From: a virus | Lineage: Duplodnaviria; Heunggongvirae; Uroviricota; Caudoviricetes | Virus record (IMG/VR): IMGVR_UViG_3300029841_000009 | Location: 4,544 to 68,543 of that record | Length of the DNA: 64,000 bases | Direction: 5' to 3' (one strand) | Shown here: one piece after another, positions 4,482 through 64,000 of the stretch | Layout of the letters: each line of letters starts with the position of its first letter | How positions within the stretch are numbered: the first letter of the stretch is position 1 | Notes under the pieces: generated by a model | Told to the model about the DNA's origin: nothing | What the model saw: the letters and a program-made list of their open reading frames with translations, nothing else | Databases searched by the model: none | Position numbers and translations under genes: made by a program

Positions 4482-5086
4482 CAGGACAACCTCGCAATGG
4501 TAAACTCGTCAACCGGTGGCTGTGGTTCCTGTGATTCATTCTGGCTATGCGAGCCAGCACTAAGAATCACGCGATTGTACATATTGAGAGCAAATGTACC
4601 GAGATCCGCATTCCCAGTCAGCGCCATGTTAATGGCTGCCGCAAGACGCCAGGCCAGCGCCTCCATAAAAATGGCATCAAACATGTTTACATCTGAAACG
4701 CGAGAGACATACTTGAGCCATGCCTGCGGCTGGTCTGTGTAGATCAATTTTCCTGTTCCGTTGGTGTCTGCACCAACTTCGTACTGAACGCGCATTGCTG
4801 CTGTTGGATTGCGTACACCAGGAAGCATAATTTCAGTAATGCGCAGACAATCTGACGGGTACTGGTACGCATATTCCCAGTCAGGCGGTGGATTGCTCGT
4901 ATCTGCAAGCGCCACGCGTTTGGTAGCAAAGTTCCAGTCAAAATCAGAAAGCACAGCATCACGGCAGGCCTCAAAGTGCAGCGAACATTCCCCCGCTTCC
5001 TTGCTGGCTTCCGTCAGGCTGTTAATGCTGCGGCTGTTGCCAATATTGGACAGCGCACGATTGCAGATCTCTACTACAGAGGCCAT
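4481..5086 (-). CDS. Tail tubular protein A-like / head-tail adaptor (T7 gp11-like)
   Basis: 201 aa; N-terminal pattern ...ALSNIG...W.F resembles gp11-type adaptors; size and order fit. Confidence 0.55.
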   Translation of the reverse strand: MASVVEICNRALSNIGNSRSINSLTEASKEAGECSLHFEACRDAVLSDFDWNFATKRVALADTSNPPPDWEYAYQYPSDCLRITEIMLPGVRNPTAAMRVQYEVGADTNGTGKLIYTDQPQAWLKYVSRVSDVNMFDAIFMEALAWRLAAAINMALTGNADLGTFALNMYNRVILSAGSHSQNESQEPQPPVDEFTIARLS

Positions 5087-10297: not shown

Positions 10298-10374
10298 GTG
10301 GCATTAGCTCAGTCGGACAGAGCAACCGCCTTCTAAGCGGTTGGTCGCAGGTTCGAATCCTGCATGCCACGCCA
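10298..10374 (+). tRNA. tRNA-Arg (anticodon UCU)
   Basis: Cloverleaf read by hand: acceptor GTGGCAT/ATGCCAC, D-arm GCTC..GAGC, anticodon stem ACCGC/GCGGT with loop CTTCTAA, T-arm GCAGG-TTCGAAT-CCTGC, discriminator G, CCA. Confidence 0.8.
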
Positions 10375-14256: not shown

Positions 14257-14900
14257 TCGTACTCACCCCCCGCTGTTTTGAATTTGATCTCCGCTGCCTG
14301 CAATGCGTGTTCGACGTCGAAGCGGTCCAGCCATCCACCAAAGTGGTGCGGCATCATTACCACCCGCTCACCGCTATTTATTGGGTGGCCCATACGGGGT
14401 TCGTAGCCGTCCGGTAACTCGACTTCCCGCGCTTCCAGTTCTGCTATGCGCTTCTCTGATGCTTCAAGTAACGCCTGCTTATCGCGTAGCGCTTCTTCCA
14501 GTTCAGCAACATGGCACTCACTATCAATAAGGTTGTTCTCTGCGGCTTCCAGCTCAACACGCAGCTTCCCTACCGTTAGCGCAATATCCTCGTTCTCTTG
14601 GTCGCGGCGTTTGATGTATTGCTGGTTTCTTTCCCGTTCATCCAACAATGCCAGCACGGTAACTGGATTGGCTGCGGCGATGAATTCAGCATTGGCCTGC
14701 TGTTCCATTTGGAAATCTTCATCGAAACCGCTTTCAGGATGCGCTCCTTCAATTCTGCAAATGGGAAGATATCCAACAACTTCACGATGAATTAGCGCAT
14801 CACCAGCATCAAATCTCTCCTCTCCATATTCTAGCGACCACACACCACACGTTGCTTTTTCTGCCTTAGCACGCAGTGCCTGGTAATTAATTTCGCTCAC
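14253..14900 (-). CDS. Ead/Ea22-like protein
   Basis: N-terminus MSEINYQALRAKAEKA and coiled-coil core LLDERERNQQYIKRRDQENEDIALTVGKLRVELEAAE, as in lambdoid Ead/Ea22 proteins. Confidence 0.55.
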   Translation of the reverse strand: MSEINYQALRAKAEKATCGVWSLEYGEERFDAGDALIHREVVGYLPICRIEGAHPESGFDEDFQMEQQANAEFIAAANPVTVLALLDERERNQQYIKRRDQENEDIALTVGKLRVELEAAENNLIDSECHVAELEEALRDKQALLEASEKRIAELEAREVELPDGYEPRMGHPINSGERVVMMPHHFGGWLDRFDVEHALQAAEIKFKTAGGEYE

Positions 14901-15137
14901 TGGCTGCCTCCTGCTTTTCTGCCTTCAACACCATGCGAGAACCATCATCCAGCTCCCACACTATCTCACCACCTTCAGCCATGACCAGTTGCCACACCAA
15001 TTGAGCAGCCTCATTGGTAACATCACGACCTGGATCATTGCCAACGCGCATACGTCCACCTTCAACATCGCGCATTTTTGCCAGCATGATAGTTTTTGAT
15101 AGCGGTGAAAAACCAAGCTGTAGTCGTGCTGAATTAC

Positions 15138-15764
15138 TCACTGGTTGCCTCCTTTGCGAAGCTGTTCCGCCCATTCTTCAAGGGATTTCTCCGCATATTC
15201 ACCGGACAGGCCATCAATCGGATGCGCTTCATTAACCAACTCTTCTTTCGCTGACAAAATCATGCGTGTAACGTCGAAAACTTCACGCAAAGACTTATTG
15301 ATAAATCCGTGATTGAACGCAGCAGCAAGACGGCTGGCGGTATAGTTAATCCCCTCGTTGCGTGCTTCCGCACGAATTTCAGCCAGAAAAGCATCGGTAG
15401 CTGGAGTTTCGCTGTGGTGTAGGGCATCATTGATAATCATTGCAGCAACACCAGCCTGCCCTGCATCCGTGACCGACACATGCTCAAGAGTTACGGCCAT
15501 TGCGTGTTTCAGTCCGTCGTTCTCCACCACCAGCGCAGCGAGATTAGTCTCATACTCCGCAATTCGGCACATAGCATCGATATTTGTGTCCTCCAGCCGC
15601 TTAATTTCATCCAGTAGCGCCAGCACAACCTGCGGTGTGACCTTCATACGAAACGCGAGCAATTTTTGCGGCGTTGCCACGACTTTTATTGCTTCTGCTG
15701 CCTCACGCAGTGCCTGGTAATTAATTTCGCTCACTGGTTGCCTCCTGAATACGCTTAAACTCAA
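15138..15764 (-). CDS. Ead/Ea22-like protein (paralog)
   Basis: Contains SEINYQALREAAEA; its 3' ~250 bp is near-identical to 63750-64000. Confidence 0.5.
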   Translation of the reverse strand: MSLSVFRRQPVSEINYQALREAAEAIKVVATPQKLLAFRMKVTPQVVLALLDEIKRLEDTNIDAMCRIAEYETNLAALVVENDGLKHAMAVTLEHVSVTDAGQAGVAAMIINDALHHSETPATDAFLAEIRAEARNEGINYTASRLAAAFNHGFINKSLREVFDVTRMILSAKEELVNEAHPIDGLSGEYAEKSLEEWAEQLRKGGNQ

Positions 15765-17145: not shown

Positions 17146-18213
17146 TCAGGCTTTCAATAGCGATTCTTTCAGATATCGGGCATCAGCCAGGGCATTTGGA
17201 GTAATCTTGCGAACCCATGCATTACGGGTTGGACTCCACTTAAAGGCGCGTGATTTAAGCAGCGAACGAATGTTTGCCTCTGGTTTGCCAGGGAAATAAA
17301 ACAGGATGCGGTTATCCTCTGGATCTATCTCCATAGAAAAGTCGTCGTATTCTTCGCGCTGTGCTCCTGTTACAGACTTGACCGATTCAAGCTCCTTAAT
17401 ACGGCTCTGTAGTCGTTTGATCTCGGCGTTATTGTTGCTCAGTGCGTATGAAGGGAATCCGATGTGCCCACAGAAATCTCCGGCCAGTAACTCTTTGGCT
17501 TCGCTTTCTGTAAACCTGAGATCGATTAATGCAGAAAGCTGCTGTAATTGGTCTTTTTTGTATTTGCGAATGGCCTTATTTGCGGCCTTCATTTTGACGT
17601 GTGACTTCATGCAGCCTTGCAGCTTACGAAGCAACTTAAATAGCGCATCAGGATCATCAGACGAAATTCCATTACGACCAACACCTGCGGCTTTGCTCTC
17701 GTAGTGTGATGCTTTACTTTCGCATTCAACAAACGCTTTTCTTAATAACGCATCAGCTTTAGACAAACGGCGGCGATGGCCTTTCGCGCTATAATGGTCA
17801 ACTAAAATCGGCTGGCCTAACGGGATCACATCCAACAGGTCATGCGCTCGCTTATGCGCTACCGCACCTTCTTTTCTGGCTTTTTCTGCACGAGCAATAT
17901 ATCGGGCAAGACGCGCGTTCTGGCGTTCCTGATAGGTGTTTACGTAATCATCTCCGCGCTGCTGCTGTTCAAGCCATGCTTTGCGCAGATCTTCTGTTAC
18001 GTCCACCAGCTCCGCAGGGATACAACCAGTTTGGGCTTCATAAGAGTAACCATCCTCATAGATACGCCCATCATCTTCAACAAAGAAAAAGGTTTCGTGC
18101 TCATCGCTTTTGACCATACGACCATTAACATGGCGTAATAGGTAGCCAGTATCAGTGCTTAACAGGCTGTTAGGGTTGTTGATCCAGTCAGAAATAATTA
18201 CTTGTTTATTCAT
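17146..18213 (-). CDS. DUF3560-like protein
   Basis: 355 aa; central IPLGQPILVDHYSAKGHRRRLSKAD segment typical of DUF3560. Confidence 0.5.
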   Translation of the reverse strand: MNKQVIISDWINNPNSLLSTDTGYLLRHVNGRMVKSDEHETFFFVEDDGRIYEDGYSYEAQTGCIPAELVDVTEDLRKAWLEQQQRGDDYVNTYQERQNARLARYIARAEKARKEGAVAHKRAHDLLDVIPLGQPILVDHYSAKGHRRRLSKADALLRKAFVECESKASHYESKAAGVGRNGISSDDPDALFKLLRKLQGCMKSHVKMKAANKAIRKYKKDQLQQLSALIDLRFTESEAKELLAGDFCGHIGFPSYALSNNNAEIKRLQSRIKELESVKSVTGAQREEYDDFSMEIDPEDNRILFYFPGKPEANIRSLLKSRAFKWSPTRNAWVRKITPNALADARYLKESLLKA

Positions 18214-18335
18214 CAGATTTCTCCGGTTTAACCAGGGCGGGTATCGCTCGGTTTCGGGTATAACCTTAGGAAATTTTTTCCCACCTGTAAAGCACTTTTT
18301 ATATAAATCTATAATTATATATTTATAGATTTTCG
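18214..18335 (-). promoter_or_regulatory. Conserved promoter-leader cassette, copy 1
   Basis: AT-rich iteron, then -35 TTTACA, 17 bp, -10 TAAGGT, about 50-nt leader with GGAG SD; near-identical copies at 28215-28333 and 58794-58911. Confidence 0.5.
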
Positions 18336-23349: not shown

Positions 23350-23371
23350 AAAAAAGGCCCCCGAAGGGGCC
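23350..23371 (-). terminator. Rho-independent terminator (minus-strand orientation)
   Basis: GGCCCC-cgaa-GGGGCC hairpin with T5 on the minus strand. Confidence 0.5.
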
Positions 23372-23377
23372 TAATCG

Positions 23378-23500
23378 CTACTTGCTGCTAATGTTTATCG
23401 TCACATTCAGAGCGTTATCAGTAATCTTCCAACCCTCCCCATGTGGCGTAAACAAAGCTCCAGTAACAACGATAAAAATACACATACAGTATTTTTTCAT
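23378..23500 (-). CDS. Small hydrophobic protein (40 aa, MKKYCMCIFIVVTGALFTPHGEGW...)
   Basis: Internal start of the 23378-23560 ORF with AAGGG SD 7 nt upstream; hydrophobic N-terminus; terminator downstream. Confidence 0.3.
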   Translation of the reverse strand: MKKYCMCIFIVVTGALFTPHGEGWKITDNALNVTINISSK

Positions 23501-23731
23501 TGTATGGCCCTTACAGGCCGTTTCACGGCATCCCCACCGACGAAAACAACGCGAGAGCAAGCACGGCTGCTTGTGCTTGCATGTACGGCAACGGAGAATC
23601 CTCCCCTAAAGTCGGTGCCCGGGTGCGAATCGGCGGGAAGGTCCACAGGTATTTTACGATTATTTTAAGATTAGTTATAGGAAAGAAATTAAACGAAAAA
23701 ACTCGTTTATTTTCACAAAATCAGTAACCTA

Positions 23732-24014: not shown

Positions 24015-24095
24015 CGAGCCGTAGCAAAATCTACGGTCGGGATTGGAACCCCGATAATCATCATGGCGCATACCGCGTTAGCGGTTTTTTTATGC
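24015..24095 (+). ncRNA. Candidate c4-like antisense/regulatory RNA in the antirepressor leader
   Basis: Hairpins CCGTAG-caaaat-CTACGG and TCGGG-AUUGGAA-CCCGA, then terminator ACCGC-gtta-GCGGT plus T7; loop UUGGAAC is complementary to GUUCCAA at 24175-24181. Confidence 0.3.
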
Positions 24096-24256
24096 GTAAA
24101 GCACTGCTACACCCAAATTATGGTGGGGCGTGCGGGGGAGTCGTAAGACTCGCCGGATTCCATGGTGACCGGTAGTTCCAACCCTGTACGTCTCACCACC
24201 CAATGATTGGAACCAGACGGTGGTGAGTATCCTTAACCTTTAAGGGAACTATCACC

Positions 24257-27833: not shown

Positions 27834-28214
27834 TTACTTAACGAGGAATAAAAATGGTTTATCGTTCGGCGGTGTACTCGGGGCTGGCTCGCTTTTGCTC
27901 ATACGATCAGTGTACCAGGCCAGCTCCTTGTCAAAGTAAGCCTGATTAAAATAGGCCATGAATGTGGTTTCAAATCCATAACGACCGCTAATACGCAGCA
28001 TCTGATTGCCGTTCTCTGTTTCCAGATATACCTGGGCACGTTCCTGATTCTCCTTCAGCCAAGTTAAAGCCTCGTCGCACGAGGACACACGATACTCATC
28101 ATCGTAGCCGTCATCGATGCGGCTTGAAGAAGAACGGCAAATCACGCCAACAGAACCAGCCAGGATAGTTTGAATTTTAAGGAAAGCGTTTTTGCGGATT
28201 TTAATCATGCTCAT
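27834..28214 (-). CDS. Hypothetical protein driven by cassette copy 2
   Basis: 126-aa ORF directly downstream of the conserved promoter-leader cassette. Confidence 0.45.
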   Translation of the reverse strand: MSMIKIRKNAFLKIQTILAGSVGVICRSSSSRIDDGYDDEYRVSSCDEALTWLKENQERAQVYLETENGNQMLRISGRYGFETTFMAYFNQAYFDKELAWYTDRMSKSEPAPSTPPNDKPFLFLVK

Positions 28215-28333
28215 CGGGTTATCTCCGGTTTAACCAGGGCGGGTATCGCTCGGTTTCGGGTATAACCATAGGAAATTTTTTCCCACCTGTAAAGCACTTT
28301 TATATAAATCTATAATTATATAATTCTATGAGC
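28215..28333 (-). promoter_or_regulatory. Conserved promoter-leader cassette, copy 2
   Basis: Near-identical to 58794-58911; -35 TTTACA, 17 bp, -10 TATGGT, leader, GGAG SD, ATG. Confidence 0.5.
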
Positions 28334-28334
28334 A

Positions 28335-28361
28335 CAAAAAAGCCCCTTTGCAACAGGGGCT
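28335..28361 (-). terminator. Rho-independent terminator after the higBA operon
   Basis: AGCCCCT-ttgcaac-AGGGGCT with T6 on the minus strand. Confidence 0.55.
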
Positions 28362-28376
28362 TATCATTCGTTCTGA

Positions 28377-28676
28377 TCAGATGTTAAACGCTATTCGTTT
28401 TCCTGTGGGAAGCTCAACATCCAGGCTTAATTTGCCTCCCATAGCTTCAACGTAACGCTTTAATGTCGCCAGCTTTAAATCATTTCCGCGCTGCTCCAGC
28501 TTTGTTACTGCTGGCTGGCTTATACCCATCGCCTCAGCAACCTGCTTTTGTGATAACTGGAGTTCTTCACGCATCATCTGCAAGCCGACCTCAAGAATCA
28601 TCTCATCTGCCATTTCTTTAATTCGCGCCTGGCTTTCCGGTAAACGGCTGGCAATCACCTCATCTAATGTTCTCAT
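28377..28676 (-). CDS. higA: HigA-like antitoxin (HTH-XRE)
   Basis: 99 aa with HTH (LSQKQVAEAMGISQPAVTKLEQ); immediately downstream of and overlapping the toxin gene. Confidence 0.65.
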   Translation of the reverse strand: MRTLDEVIASRLPESQARIKEMADEMILEVGLQMMREELQLSQKQVAEAMGISQPAVTKLEQRGNDLKLATLKRYVEAMGGKLSLDVELPTGKRIAFNI

Positions 28677-29029
28677 TACTTGCTCTCCAGTGTGTTCAGA
28701 TGTGCTGCAAACTCATCCTCAGCTATACGCACCAGTTTTTTATAAAACCGCTTATCGTTACTTTTGTCTCCTGCACAAAGAACGATAGCCCGGCGAATCG
28801 GATCGAACGCATAAAAGGCTCTTATCGGACGGCCAGAAAACTGAACGCGAAGCTCTTTCATATTTTTGTACCGAGAACCTTTTACGGTATCGGCATATGG
28901 CCTGGGTAACTCAGGTCCGTAAACCTGTAGCTTTTTCAAATCAGCCAAAACCTTTTCCTGAAGAGCGTCTTCTTGCTCATTTAGCCAGCCGTCAAATCGC
29001 TGGCTAAAAAGTACCGTCCACATGCTCAA
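28676..29029 (-). CDS. higB: HigB-like toxin (RelE/ParE superfamily)
   Basis: 117 aa; toxin-first order; resembles the HigB / Gp49-like killer family. Confidence 0.65.
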   Translation of the reverse strand: MSMWTVLFSQRFDGWLNEQEDALQEKVLADLKKLQVYGPELPRPYADTVKGSRYKNMKELRVQFSGRPIRAFYAFDPIRRAIVLCAGDKSNDKRFYKKLVRIAEDEFAAHLNTLESK

Positions 29030-29267
29030 TCCTATAACCTGTAGTTTATATCACTAACTATATAACCTGTGAGTTATAATTTCAAGAAAAACGGGGCCAT
29101 TTAACATAATGGACGTTATCGGCACCACCGGATCACCGTTCATTGTCGGATCTAAAAAATCCGCTCAAAAGATCATGTTTTCCTGGGCGTTTTCCACCGT
29201 TTTTTATGTTGCTTATTTGTTAATGAAATCTCGTTTTCAGTTTCGCCTCATTTTCGACGCGAAAGCC

Positions 29268-29558
29268 CTATTTTTGTGACTTTACTCCTGGCATATGGAC
29301 TTCCCAGCGACGAATCCCCATAGCTGCGCAAAAATCAGCCACATAATTCAATCCCGCCCATTCGCGGATACCACCACGGGCTTTTTCAATGAAAACGGCA
29401 ATCCCTTTTTTATTGAGAGCAAAAAGCCGCCAGCTTTTTGTCACTTCGTCCTGGGTAGCCACAACACAAGTGAAAGCTCCCATGCGATACAGGTCCAAGA
29501 ACTCTTTGCGTGTTTTGCGTACAAGTTCCATAACAAACCTCATATTTGCATGTTTCAA
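29268..29558 (-). CDS. Hypothetical protein (plasmid backbone)
   Basis: 96-aa ORF near the replicon. Confidence 0.35.
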   Translation of the reverse strand: MKHANMRFVMELVRKTRKEFLDLYRMGAFTCVVATQDEVTKSWRLFALNKKGIAVFIEKARGGIREWAGLNYVADFCAAMGIRRWEVHMPGVKSQK

Positions 29559-29854
29559 ACATCTGTTTTGTTATCAATGAAGATTAACCCTAACCCAGCG
29601 AAGTAACACAGCAGCGCCCAGGCTGCATACGGAATGCTGGATCTGGATGTGGACTCCTTTAACATCTGCCAGTTGCGAACATTGCGACTATCTTTTAAGC
29701 CTAGTTTTTTGGCTAACTGCGAGCCGCTCATTCCGGTCAGGCCAATGACTGCCCGAACTTCTCCACATGTAGGAGATTCCCATTCATCCGCTTTTTTTAA
29801 ACAAGCCGGATTCAACATTTTTAAAACAGTATCTTTATCCATAACCATCTCCAT
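29555..29854 (-). CDS. Putative DNA-binding protein with C-terminal hydrophobic segment
   Basis: HTH-like GEVRAVIGLTGMSGSQLAKKLGL plus C-terminal IPYAAWALLCYFAGLGLIFI. Confidence 0.3.
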   Translation of the reverse strand: MEMVMDKDTVLKMLNPACLKKADEWESPTCGEVRAVIGLTGMSGSQLAKKLGLKDSRNVRNWQMLKESTSRSSIPYAAWALLCYFAGLGLIFIDNKTDV

Positions 29855-30485: not shown

Positions 30486-31334
30486 TTAATGTTGGAGTGA
30501 TTTCCAGGTCTTTCTTAACCTGTTATAACGCTGCTCAACGAGGGATCGTAAATATGCAAGGTCAGCACCAGGATACATGCCATCAGCAAATTCCTGACTA
30601 ACCTCTCTGGTGATTTGATGACGAAGTTCGGCCTCTCCCTTTTCCCGAACAAGACGCGCAGCTCTCTCCGCTGCTTTCTGTTTTGCCTTTATCTCTCTGG
30701 CCGTCTTCCTCTGACGCCATACATTCTCCATCTGCTCCTGAATAACAATACGCTTATAATCAGCCTCCGTTATCGCTTTTTTAAGCCGTTCGCTATTCTT
30801 CGCATTGAAGTAATTAAGTTTCTGGCTAACCGCACGTCTCCATGCTTGTTCAGTAATACCAACGGTTTCCAGCAGTTGATCACGAATCTCTATTTTCGCT
30901 GGCCAATACTGTTTATTCACCCGATCCCAGCGACGTTCATAATCAATAAAACCTAACGCTTTCAGTTGCGACAACGCCCTTGTACAGCGCGTTATAGACT
31001 TGTTCCCAGCTTCGGATACGGTAGACAGGCCGCAAAAATCAGCCAACGCCTCAGCACTAGCCAGAACCCGCTTAGAAATGATGTTTACATGGTGCAAAAT
31101 CGCAGCGATCACAGCATTAATCGCCCGACGACGATGCTCGTTTATCCGGCGCTTCCGCTCTGACGGTTGATTAACGTAGAACGCAACCTCACACGTAAGA
31201 TCACGCCCATTAATGCGCTGTAAAGCATCAGATAACACCAGCGGCAGCTTGTGCGTATGGTGCTTTGGAGGCTGGAACTCCGGCGACAAATTACAAACGT
31301 AAGCTGAACGTAGAGACGGCATTGGTCTATCCAT
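30486..31334 (-). CDS. repA: IncFII-type replication initiator RepA (ORF extends to 31466 but likely starts at MDRPMPSL)
   Basis: Segment KSITRCTRALSQLKALGFIDYE and basic C-terminus resemble IncFII RepA1; the upstream in-frame extension overlaps an antisense promoter/terminator. Confidence 0.75.
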   Translation of the reverse strand: MDRPMPSLRSAYVCNLSPEFQPPKHHTHKLPLVLSDALQRINGRDLTCEVAFYVNQPSERKRRINEHRRRAINAVIAAILHHVNIISKRVLASAEALADFCGLSTVSEAGNKSITRCTRALSQLKALGFIDYERRWDRVNKQYWPAKIEIRDQLLETVGITEQAWRRAVSQKLNYFNAKNSERLKKAITEADYKRIVIQEQMENVWRQRKTAREIKAKQKAAERAARLVREKGEAELRHQITREVSQEFADGMYPGADLAYLRSLVEQRYNRLRKTWKSLQH

Positions 31335-31378
31335 ATGTTCGCTCTTGCGTCCACGGAAAACCAACGTATAATGGGAGT

Positions 31379-31460
31379 TGTCGAGGCGCCCATGGATTGT
31401 TGTTGTTGGTTTTCCGTGGATGTCGCAAGAAGCCCGCAGATTTATCTGCGGGCTTTTTGT
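31379..31460 (+). ncRNA. CopA-like antisense RNA candidate opposite the repA leader
   Basis: Plus-strand promoter TTGCGT-16 bp-TATAAT (31345-31372), stem-loop, and terminator GCCCGCAG-attta-TCTGCGGGC-TTTTT (31430-31458). Confidence 0.35.
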
Positions 31461-31502
31461 TTCCATATCTGGTCACTTTCCAACCAGACACCCACAATCA
31501 TA

Positions 31503-58527: not shown

Positions 58528-58793
58528 TCATCATCTCCTGCCGCACATACAACCTCACAAAAAAAATCAGCAGAATGTTTCTCCTTGAACGAATGACGCT
58601 CAAAACCGCACTCAATATCAGGCGCAAAAACATCCACCACATACGGTCTTTCAGAATGTTTGTTTTCCCAACGATAAACCGTAGTGACGTTGAAATGTTT
58701 TAACGCTTCACGGAACTCAACGCTGCCAGTCAGGTTTTTTGAGGTCAGGTATTGCAGGAGGTTTTTTACTACTTCACGGTCTTGTACTTTCAT
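58524..58793 (-). CDS. Hypothetical protein driven by cassette copy 3
   Basis: 89-aa ORF immediately downstream of the conserved promoter-leader cassette. Confidence 0.45.
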   Translation of the reverse strand: MKVQDREVVKNLLQYLTSKNLTGSVEFREALKHFNVTTVYRWENKHSERPYVVDVFAPDIECGFERHSFKEKHSADFFCEVVCAAGDDE

Positions 58794-58911
58794 CGGGTTA
58801 TCTCCGGTTTAACCAGGGCGGGTATCGCTCGGTTTCGGGTATAACCATAGGAAATTTTTTCCCACCTGTAAAGCACTTTTATATAAATCTATAATTATAT
58901 AATTCTATACC
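58794..58911 (-). promoter_or_regulatory. Conserved promoter-leader cassette, copy 3
   Basis: -35 TTTACA (58872-58867), 17 bp, -10 TATGGT (58849-58844), leader with GGAG SD; AT-rich iteron 58877-58911. Confidence 0.5.
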
Positions 58912-59800: not shown

Positions 59801-59876
59801 TGGTGGCCCCTACCGGATTTGAACCGATGACCGTGCGATTATGAGTCGCCTGCTCTAACCACTGAGCTAAGGGGCC
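59801..59876 (-). tRNA. tRNA with CAU anticodon (tRNA-Ile2-like, or Met)
   Basis: Minus-strand read GGCCCCTTAGCTCAGTGGTTAGAGCAGGCGACTCATAATCGC...GGTTCAAATCC...GGGGCCACCA; close to my recollection of E. coli ileX in acceptor, D and anticodon arms. Confidence 0.8.
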
Positions 59877-62848: not shown

Positions 62849-63531
62849 TCCCCCTTCACGCCAATGCCAGCGGCGCGCTCGGCTTTACTTTGTTCCCAAA
62901 ACCACTTGTGAAGCTCCATAAGCTTTTCGTCAATCGGTGCATATTTGCGATTAAAGTAGGCCTGAGCATCTTTCTCAGATTCGTCCGGCAATTCGCCTGG
63001 GCCAAACAGTGTGTTATAAATCCATGCCAGTCCGCTCTTAGCGTCGCCAGTTGCCTGCCATTCGATAATCGCAGCCTGCATGACCAGAATGTTTTTCCCG
63101 ATTAACAGGTCCAGTTCTTTGTACCGGTTGCGGATGTATGCATTCTCGCTTTGTAATTTTGCGTTGCGCTTCTCTGCGGCTTCCAGCTCAACACGCAGCT
63201 TCCCTACCGTTAGCGCAATTTCCTCGTTCTCCTGGTCGCGTGATTTGATGTATTGCTGGTTTCTTTCCCGTTCATCCAGCAGCGCCTGCACTACTTCAGG
63301 GTTGAAAGCTGCGATATAACGAGCGTTGTTCTCTGCGTTTTTCTGTTCGTCGAATCCTGGCCAGTCGACAATATCTCCGTGATGATTATCACCTGGTGTG
63401 TGTACGGCGTACGTGCCGTATTTGCCCGGCGAAATAAATGCGACCCATTCACCCTGTGTTGCCTTTTCTGCCGCATCACGCAGTGCCTGATAGTCAATTT
63501 TGCTCATTGTGCCTCCTCGATTTCGTCCCAT
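62845..63531 (-). CDS. Ead/Ea22-like protein (probable start at MSKIDYQALRDAAEKA, 63507)
   Basis: Shares MS.I.YQALR.AAEKA and the coiled-coil core LLDERERNQQYIKSRDQENEEIALTVGKLRVELEAAE with 14253-14900. Confidence 0.5.
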   Translation of the reverse strand: MGRNRGGTMSKIDYQALRDAAEKATQGEWVAFISPGKYGTYAVHTPGDNHHGDIVDWPGFDEQKNAENNARYIAAFNPEVVQALLDERERNQQYIKSRDQENEEIALTVGKLRVELEAAEKRNAKLQSENAYIRNRYKELDLLIGKNILVMQAAIIEWQATGDAKSGLAWIYNTLFGPGELPDESEKDAQAYFNRKYAPIDEKLMELHKWFWEQSKAERAAGIGVKGE

Positions 63532-63737: not shown

Positions 63738-64000
63738 AACTGAACTCCTTTGCGAATCTGTTCCGCCCATTCTTCAAGGGATTTCTCCGCATATTCACCG
63801 GACAGGCCATCAATCGGGTACGGTTCATTAGCCAACTCTTCTTTCGCTGACAGAATCATGCGCGTAACGTCGAAAACTTCACGCAAAGACTTATTGATAA
63901 ATCCGTGATTGAACGCAGCAGCAAGACGGCTGGCGGTATAGTTAATCCCCTCGTTGCGTGCTTCCGCACGAATTTCAGCCAGAAAAGCATCGGTAGCTGG
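63734..64000 (-). CDS. Ead/Ea22-like protein, C-terminal part (gene runs off the right edge)
   Basis: Near-identical at DNA level to the 3' end of 15138-15764; stop TGA at 63734-63736. Confidence 0.5.
   Translation of the reverse strand, partial: PATDAFLAEIRAEARNEGINYTASRLAAAFNHGFINKSLREVFDVTRMILSAKEELANEPYPIDGLSGEYAEKSLEEWAEQIRKGVQL

Follow-up and report, generated by a model that had tools for sequence, protein, structure and literature searches.

A probable autoregulated Gp49/HigA-type toxin-antitoxin operon beside the IncFII-type replicon of a myovirus-type phage-plasmid

The 64,000-nt stretch of viral DNA analysed here (IMG/VR record IMGVR_UViG_3300029841_000009, positions 4,544 to 68,543; hereafter the window) carries on its minus strand a pair of small genes, which are predicted to form a type II toxin-antitoxin (TA) operon. 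The toxin gene stands first and its stop codon overlaps the start codon of the antitoxin gene in the sequence TAATG, while a promoter with two operator-like palindromes precedes the pair and an intrinsic terminator follows it (Table 1). A sequence-only reading of this DNA had proposed a HigBA-type addiction module at 28377-29029, and the toxin-first order was found as placed there, with minus-strand open reading frames (ORFs) at 28676..29029 and then 28377..28676. Both ORFs of that reading stand, whereas its outer end needs correction: 29029 is an upstream in-frame TTG to which the toxin frame reaches (117 amino acids from TTG), and the start is likely the ATG at 29023, because an AGGA Shine-Dalgarno motif lies 6 nt upstream of it, the homologues begin with MW and the coding sequence in RefSeq is 348 nt long. 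The N-terminal MW is present in all toxin homologues of the alignment, and the 348-nt coding sequence is that of the near-identical plasmid of Escherichia coli ATCC 25922.

Table 1. Coordinates, in the window, of the toxin-antitoxin operon, its regulatory elements and the nearby replication gene.
Feature	Position	Strand	Description and evidence
Toxin gene	28676..29023	-	115 amino acids; ORF, Pfam PF05973, PHROG 3445, AlphaFold2 model/Foldseek
Antitoxin gene	28377..28676	-	99 amino acids; HigA-like; ORF, HTH_3/HTH_37, PDB sequence matches
Sigma-70-like promoter (predicted)	29057..29085	-	TTGAAA, 17-nt spacer, TATAGT; consensus scan 10/12
Operator-like palindrome 1	29061..29078	.	18 bp; in the promoter spacer, overlaps the -10 box; minus strand TATAACTCACAGGTTATA
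Operator-like palindrome 2	29033..29050	.	18 bp; between the -10 box and the Shine-Dalgarno motif; minus strand TATAAACTACAGGTTATA
Intrinsic terminator	28334..28362	-	AAGCCCCUGUUGCAAAGGGGCUU then U-run; terminator scan
RepA, IncFII-type replication initiator	30486..31466	-	PF02387 1.3e-43; NF040977 RepA_IncFII_LM 231.5 bits (cutoff 70)

A toxin gene followed by an antitoxin homologue on the same strand, at a gap of 0-53 nt, was found in 84 of 84 loci. Of these, 80 loci, each from a different species, come from Enterobacterales, Pasteurellales, Moraxellales and Burkholderiales, and the other four are those of the ATCC 25922 plasmid, phage vB_YpM_39, an Acinetobacter plasmid and the Yersinia plasmid pPCP1. 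Grouped at 90% identity, the toxin family has 1186 clusters; grouped at 50%, it has 3263 representative clusters (E <= 1e-3). Since the order is kept in every locus and the family is so large, the gene pair lies far beyond chance, and chance ORFs were rejected as an explanation. The two-gene unit is, as judged from sequence, very probably a genuine type II TA operon of the Gp49(HigB)/XRE-HTH(HigA) kind, in which HTH denotes the helix-turn-helix domain of the antitoxin.

The toxin matches the Pfam family Gp49/PF05973 over profile positions 2-89 of 90 with 81 bits (gathering cutoff 23.9; E 6.5e-23), and PF05973 is present in all 120 toxin homologues among the matches listed. It was the only Pfam family matched at E <= 0.01, with no match to PF05015, PF09907 or PF05016 (ParE). 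As well, the toxin matches PHROG 3445, 'toxin' (1e-32), and scores below the cutoff of the NCBIfam model TIGR02683, the upstrm_HI1419 RelE/ParE toxin equivalog (17.9 bits vs 62.85). According to previous studies, PF05973 toxins, such as gp49, tad, HigB1 and HigB3, function in ribosome-dependent mRNA degradation and are encoded in toxin-first operons (PMC11980606), and the family has been traced to tad-ata of pAMI2 and gp49 of phage N15 (Makarova et al., PMC2701414). Vibrio cholerae HigB2 was considered as a member of PF05973 and rejected, as Table 1 of PMC11980606 puts it in PF06296.

The AlphaFold2 model of the toxin, built from 34 homologues, has a predicted local distance difference test score of 91 and a beta-alpha-alpha-beta4-alpha topology (E3-6, H8-15, H19-38, E44-46, E55-62, E65-73, E78-86 and H91-114), which amounts to a four-stranded antiparallel sheet with two N-terminal helices and a long C-terminal helix. 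A long alpha3 helix has been described for the Gp49-like toxin group (PMC9098466). Foldseek gave a probability of 1.00 to structures of RelE, HigB and HigB2, the best PDB matches being RelE of Thermus thermophilus, E. coli and archaeal origin (2KHE/4FXE/1WMI), Streptococcus pneumoniae HigB (6AF3/6AF4) and V. cholerae HigB2 (5JAA). ParE2 (5CW7) was 14th in the ranking with E 1.7e-2, while the values for RelE and HigB structures ran from 8e-5 to 6e-3. The modelled toxin would therefore adopt a RelE-like (BECR) fold, which matches RelE and HigB better than ParE.

Among 102 representatives drawn from different 50%-identity clusters, six positions are highly conserved: K56 (K/R in 100%), E57 (99%), R59 (96%), R68 (98%), K87 (92%) and Y94 (94%). 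The window toxin carries all of them, and K91 as well. Judged by the motif and by their place in the predicted secondary structure, E57/R59/R68/K87/K91 stand in register with E66/R68/R77/K95/K99 of HigB-TAC from Mycobacterium tuberculosis, in a weak and non-significant hidden Markov model (HMM) alignment of ~5 bits, and conserved residues of the toxin stand in register with R61/Y87 of E. coli RelE in an equally non-significant alignment of the 102-representative HMM. The HigB-TAC and RelE reference sequences were checked only against the residue numbers in PMC9098466, from which the catalytic roles of their residues were also taken. With hhalign, the family profile gave non-significant alignments to both E. 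coli RelE and HigB-TAC, the latter misregistered. On this tentative mapping, K56, E57, R59, R68, K87 and Y94 are probable active-site residues.

The antitoxin consists of an N-terminal helical region and an XRE-type HTH at residues about 32-83, and it exceeds the Pfam cutoffs for HTH_3 (3.9e-10), HTH_37 (1.3e-7) and HTH_31. Its best PDB sequence matches are HigA proteins, namely M. tuberculosis HigA3 (6LTY, 3.2e-5) and HigA2 (7EWC, 3.2e-4) and S. pneumoniae HigA (6AF3, 4.8e-3). The HTH-XRE antitoxin named in the sequence-only reading is thus recovered with HigA-type relatives, as is the RelE/ParE-superfamily toxin by its Pfam match and predicted fold. The name HigBA holds in the broad sense of a toxin-first order, an XRE antitoxin and a RelE fold, but not in the narrow sense of the classical Rts1 HigB families PF05015/PF09907.

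The two imperfect 18-bp palindromes are spaced 28 bp apart and bracket the -10 box of the predicted promoter, and the same succession of -35 box, palindrome, -10 box, second palindrome and Shine-Dalgarno motif is found upstream of diverged homologues. When palindromes were defined by 7-nt arms with at most one mismatch in 80-nt regions, at least one was present in 95% of 78 distinct upstream regions and at least two non-overlapping ones in 64%, against 45% and 9% for real flanking controls and 44% and 7% for composition-matched shuffles. A more lenient definition with 6-nt arms was dropped, since it gave at least two sites in 36% of shuffles. In a qualitative in silico comparison, the half-site classes TATAAC, TATAAGC, TATAAAC, TATAGAC and TATAGC track the recognition helix of the adjacent antitoxin, a co-variation that is expected if the antitoxin binds the palindromes. 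Previous studies showed that Acinetobacter baumannii HigA2 represses its own promoter with HigB2 as corepressor (PMC5906591), and that the S. pneumoniae HigBA complex binds palindromes of its own promoter (PMC7984235). The window operon appears to carry the features of such autoregulation, namely a putative DNA-binding antitoxin and palindromes in its own promoter. No internal antitoxin promoter was found within the toxin gene by the promoter scan, and no RNA family was found within the module by Rfam. A terminator after the pair had also been proposed earlier, and it lies just outside the 28377-29029 interval: the hairpin at 28362..28340 has an 8-bp stem with five G-C pairs, lies 14 nt past the antitoxin stop and is followed by UUUUUUGUG. 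The hairpin alone folds at -15.5 kcal/mol (z -1.8), only modestly better than shuffles.

The gene repA is on the same strand as the TA pair and lies 1.46 kb upstream of it, so that the proposed position of the pair next to the replicon is correct. Over 1 kb, the TA region shares 99.3% identity with the 48,488-bp plasmid of the E. coli reference strain ATCC 25922 and 98.6-98.7% with the Yersinia phages vB_YpM_39, 41 and 44. In the GenBank records of these phages the toxin is annotated as higB2, while the RefSeq names are 'type II toxin-antitoxin system RelE/ParE family toxin' and 'helix-turn-helix domain-containing protein'. The ATCC 25922 plasmid is a complete myovirus-type phage-plasmid, which encodes terminase, portal, capsid, sheath/baseplate, tail fibres with an invertase, holins and endolysin, and which also carries ParA, an IncFII-type RepA and the TA pair. 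Counted among the top 60 cassette matches, at least 57 of 60 PLSDB plasmids that match the terminase gene contain the TA cassette, so that the module can in effect be counted among the core genes of the lineage.

Within the window, positions 15,128-63,745 correspond to one full 48.6-kb phage-plasmid circle, bounded by a repeated ead/Ea22-like segment (15128-15405 and 63745-64000, also 14536-14694 vs 63170-63328; copies 84-97% identical), and positions 1 to ~14,600 hold structural, terminase and lysis genes of a phiV10/TL-2011b-like podovirus (97% identity). The junction between the two parts suggests a single-crossover integration (cointegrate) or a chimeric assembly, and it was absent from the complete E. 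coli genomes in the collection searched.

Several experimentally studied systems can be compared with the window pair. Its toxin and antitoxin are 54% and 63% identical to the HigBA pair of an Acinetobacter pittii plasmid, a homologue of the A. baumannii HigBA family, which includes variants 1 and 2. A. baumannii HigBA was proven to be toxic in E. coli with rescue by the antitoxin, its purified HigB is a ribonuclease (RNase) in vitro that is blocked in the complex, and higBA2 stabilises an unstable vector (PMC5906591). Like the window pair, HigBA1Ab and HigBA2Ab of pAB120 are plasmid-borne and combine a leading Gp49 toxin, an XRE-HTH antitoxin and upstream palindromes. Unlike it, the Acinetobacter half-sites are of the TATAGAC rather than the TATAAC type, and in the window the pair resides on a phage-plasmid whose RepA is of the IncFII type.

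The tad-ata system of Paracoccus aminophilus pAMI2, gp49 of N15 and the SXT homologues likewise join a toxin of COG4679/DUF891 (= Pfam Gp49) to an XRE-HTH antitoxin, and tad-ata with its N15 and SXT homologues is said, in the title of Dziewit et al. 2007, to comprise stabilising systems. With a plasmid, an integrative conjugative element and a phage-plasmid as carriers, their biological setting is that of the window pair, but in sequence they are only distantly related to it. N15 is a linear siphovirus-type phage-plasmid with another replicon, whereas the element of the window is of the myovirus type with an IncFII-type RepA; N15 was not recovered at E <= 1e-3 in a tblastn search of the phage collection with the window toxin. 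The HigBA module of Rts1 (Proteus vulgaris) shares the toxin-first order, an HTH antitoxin and a RelE-like fold with the window pair, and its HigB is a ribosome-dependent mRNase with a plasmid-stabilising role. However, Rts1 HigB belongs to Pfam PF05015/PF09907, a family other than that of the window toxin, and the two share the name 'HigB' on account of gene order and fold rather than of orthology.

HigB-TAC (HigB1), HigBA2 and HigBA3 of M. tuberculosis agree with the window pair in Pfam family, RelE-like fold and long C-terminal helix. HigB-TAC is, however, part of a tripartite system with a SecB-like chaperone, for which no gene is present at the window locus, and the M. tuberculosis HigB toxins are too distant from the window toxin for a significant pairwise or profile alignment. 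S. pneumoniae HigB is the best full-length structural match of the toxin model (template modelling score 0.64-0.74), but the two toxins are only 13-16% identical, and the S. pneumoniae HigBA module is chromosomal, in a Gram-positive host, with four palindromes where the window has two. This HigB is an RNase with key residues R68, R73, F90 and K92 (PMC7984235). TA modules of the family were also reported on transposons (PMC7157771).

Taken together, we favour, at a probability of about 0.72, an autoregulated type II TA system whose RelE-like mRNase toxin would penalise loss of the 48-kb phage-plasmid. One promoter would drive the toxin gene and then the antitoxin gene, with TAATG as a translational link and the intrinsic terminator as the end of transcription. 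An antitoxin dimer, probably held more tightly when toxin-bound, would occupy the two 18-bp palindromes and repress the operon, while the N-terminal region of the antitoxin would bind and neutralise the toxin. Upon loss of the element or degradation of the antitoxin, the freed toxin, a RelE-like and probably ribosome-associated mRNA endonuclease, would arrest or kill the cell, and loss of the element would be penalised by such post-segregational killing. The in silico observations cover the structure of the two genes, the family and fold, the constant pairing, the arrangement of the operators and the occurrence near repA throughout the lineage. As is expected of an addiction module, the pair lies on, and is conserved within, an extrachromosomal replicon, near repA. 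Addiction appears to be the best-supported role in view of this location, the presence in at least 57 of 60 lineage plasmids and the homologue experiments (PMC5906591), and it is rather likely the main role of the pair. Toxicity, RNase activity, neutralisation, autorepression, antitoxin lability and a stabilising effect would be expected here solely by analogy with homologues.

Several points weigh against this reading. The toxin gave no significant sequence match in PDB, either as a single sequence or as a 34-sequence profile, which is why a fold search was used, and the catalytic mapping is tentative because none of the alignments to RelE or HigB-TAC reached significance. The window toxin has no counterpart of HigB-TAC N73 or F93. 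When higBA2 was deleted from the A. baumannii plasmid that naturally carries it, no plasmid loss could be measured (PMC5906591), so that stabilisation by this family can be context-dependent. As the phage-plasmid appears to be joined here to phiV10-like prophage DNA, its plasmid state in the window is uncertain. Finally, M. tuberculosis HigB2 and HigB3, in which several catalytic residues are missing, were non-toxic in Mycobacterium smegmatis (PMC9098466).

The cassette also has a close counterpart outside the phage-plasmid lineage. Window positions 28387-29090 are 95% identical in DNA to positions 1491-2204 of pPCP1 (NC_019235), the 9.6-kb plasmid of Yersinia pestis, where the cassette adjoins pla, and the encoded toxins and antitoxins are 97% and 94% identical, respectively. 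The common unit of about 700-760 bp runs from the promoter to the antitoxin stop, while the terminator and flanks differ, and it was found in about 52-55 Yersinia plasmid records. The virions of vB_YpM_39/41/44 were isolated on Y. pestis EV76. Literature searches gave no specific description of a TA system on pPCP1 or in this phage-plasmid lineage. It is a distant prospect that the cassette is a mobile unit whose phage-plasmid and pPCP1 versions cross-talk, such that an incoming antitoxin would neutralise the pPCP1 toxin and permit the loss of pPCP1, or the pPCP1 module would alter the establishment or stability of the phage-plasmid.

Other roles can be envisaged for the same pair. It might act mainly against other phages, by abortive infection or superinfection exclusion, if another phage's shut-off of host transcription or degradation of the antitoxin freed the RNase toxin, in which case plasmid stabilisation would be a side effect. 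A defence moron would not be out of place on a temperate element, RelE/ParE-superfamily toxins have been treated as defence toxins (PMC11980606), and in PADLOC-DB 2.0 the antitoxin matches HTH_VI, a generic HTH (1.9e-8), and the toxin gives a weak partial match to the C-terminal 100 positions of NsnC (1.2e-6). However, no PADLOC-DB 2.0 system was matched as a system, the cassette contains no extra sensor or effector gene, and it resides on plasmids of all mobility classes as well as on the 9.6-kb pPCP1, where stabilisation is the simpler reading. No defence activity was reported for this ortholog group in the literature searched, and a predominantly anti-phage role is considered unlikely. The contribution to phage defence that the sequence-only reading had thought possible found no support, the PADLOC match being weak and at the level of domains only.

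Alternatively, the toxin might be attenuated or inactive, and the pair might work through its HTH protein as a regulator or as an anti-addiction module, which would neutralise near-identical toxins such as that of pPCP1 and let the phage-plasmid displace or coexist with competitors. The non-toxic M. tuberculosis HigB2 and HigB3, to whose antitoxins the window antitoxin is closest among solved structures, speak for it, as do the near-identity of the pPCP1 pair, the isolation of virions of the lineage on Y. pestis EV76 and the finding that A. baumannii HigA variants cross-neutralise toxins differing by 42% (PMC5906591). On the other side, the polar residues aligned with catalytic positions are intact and 90-99% conserved family-wide, the closer A. 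baumannii HigB family (54% identity) is toxic and has RNase activity, and the retention of a toxin gene ahead of the antitoxin in all 84 loci argues for a functional toxin; the alternative seems rather improbable. A ParE-type poison of DNA gyrase in place of an mRNA endonuclease is hardly credible and was rejected, since Pfam, the fold ranking and the known activities of the family all disfavour it. It could appeal to the generic RefSeq name and to ParE2 among the fold matches, but PF05016 was not matched at E <= 0.01, RelE and HigB structures rank well above ParE2, Gp49 is listed under ribosome-dependent mRNA degradation (PMC11980606 Table 1), relatives are RNases (PMC5906591, PMC9098466), and the conserved KELR...R...K...Y pattern is in line with RelE/HigB catalytic positions in the tentative alignment.

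Two copies of the cassette depart from the common form. In the Y. pestis toxin variant P0010, FESDSSGYRS replaces FDPIRRAIVL at residues ~73-82, which is consistent with a compensated frameshift in beta3-beta4, and in E. coli plasmid NZ_CP037450.1 a 707-bp match to the 714-bp query (17278-17984) has no annotated coding sequence. Both are possible cases of toxin inactivation. As well, three plasmids of 27.7-28.5 kb (NZ_CP037908.1, CP100008.1 and NZ_CP140467.1) carry the cassette at 98% identity with no terminase match, and they probably arose from the phage-plasmid by deletions that spared the TA pair.

Further features were noted around the locus. A 119-nt AT-rich direct repeat occurs at 18209-18327, 28211-28329 and 58790-58908, two copies being identical and the third 75%; it holds a promoter-like TTTACA-17 nt-TATGGT and short ATCTATAATTATA-type repeats, and it may serve the phage-plasmid as a common promoter under repressor control. 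One copy adjoins the TA terminator downstream, ahead of an ORF at 27834-28214 (-) for 126 amino acids (PHROG 8090), whose hydrophobic N-terminus is followed by Cys (…ILAGSVGVIC…) and whose product is possibly a secreted protein or lipoprotein moron. Between repA/ori and the TA pair lie two small, conserved ORFs, 29555-29854 (-) and 29268-29558 (-), which belong to PHROGs 8351 and 4595, the former with a weak HTH-like match to 'mobile mystery protein A' (1.1e-4). They could be a second regulator/partner pair or serve in replication control. Above the Rfam gathering score, ryfA RNA (23350-23646, -), isrK (24018-24091, +) and C4 antisense RNA (24116-24203, +) were matched near parA and HTH regulators, and the C4 match suggests that an antirepressor of the phage-plasmid is under the control of antisense RNA. 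Transfer RNA genes are located at 10298-10371 (+) in the phiV10-like part and at 59804-59876 (-) in the phage-plasmid part.

The pair is already annotated in RefSeq, and as higB2 in GenBank, and TA systems of this family are established on plasmids, transposons and the phage-plasmid N15; beyond correct annotation, the finding has little significance. The present analysis adds a corrected toxin start, the layout of promoter and operators together with its comparative support, candidate catalytic residues and the conservation across the lineage. The near-identical cassette of pPCP1 provides a small, concrete case of a TA system moving between a phage-plasmid and a virulence plasmid, and the cross-talk considered above, if true, would tie the retention of the plasmid that carries pla to a temperate phage. 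Efforts to cure or engineer these elements could aim at the predicted operators and the candidate catalytic residues. A conserved Gp49/HigA-type TA beside an IncFII-type replicon fits the picture of phage-plasmids borrowing plasmid stability functions.

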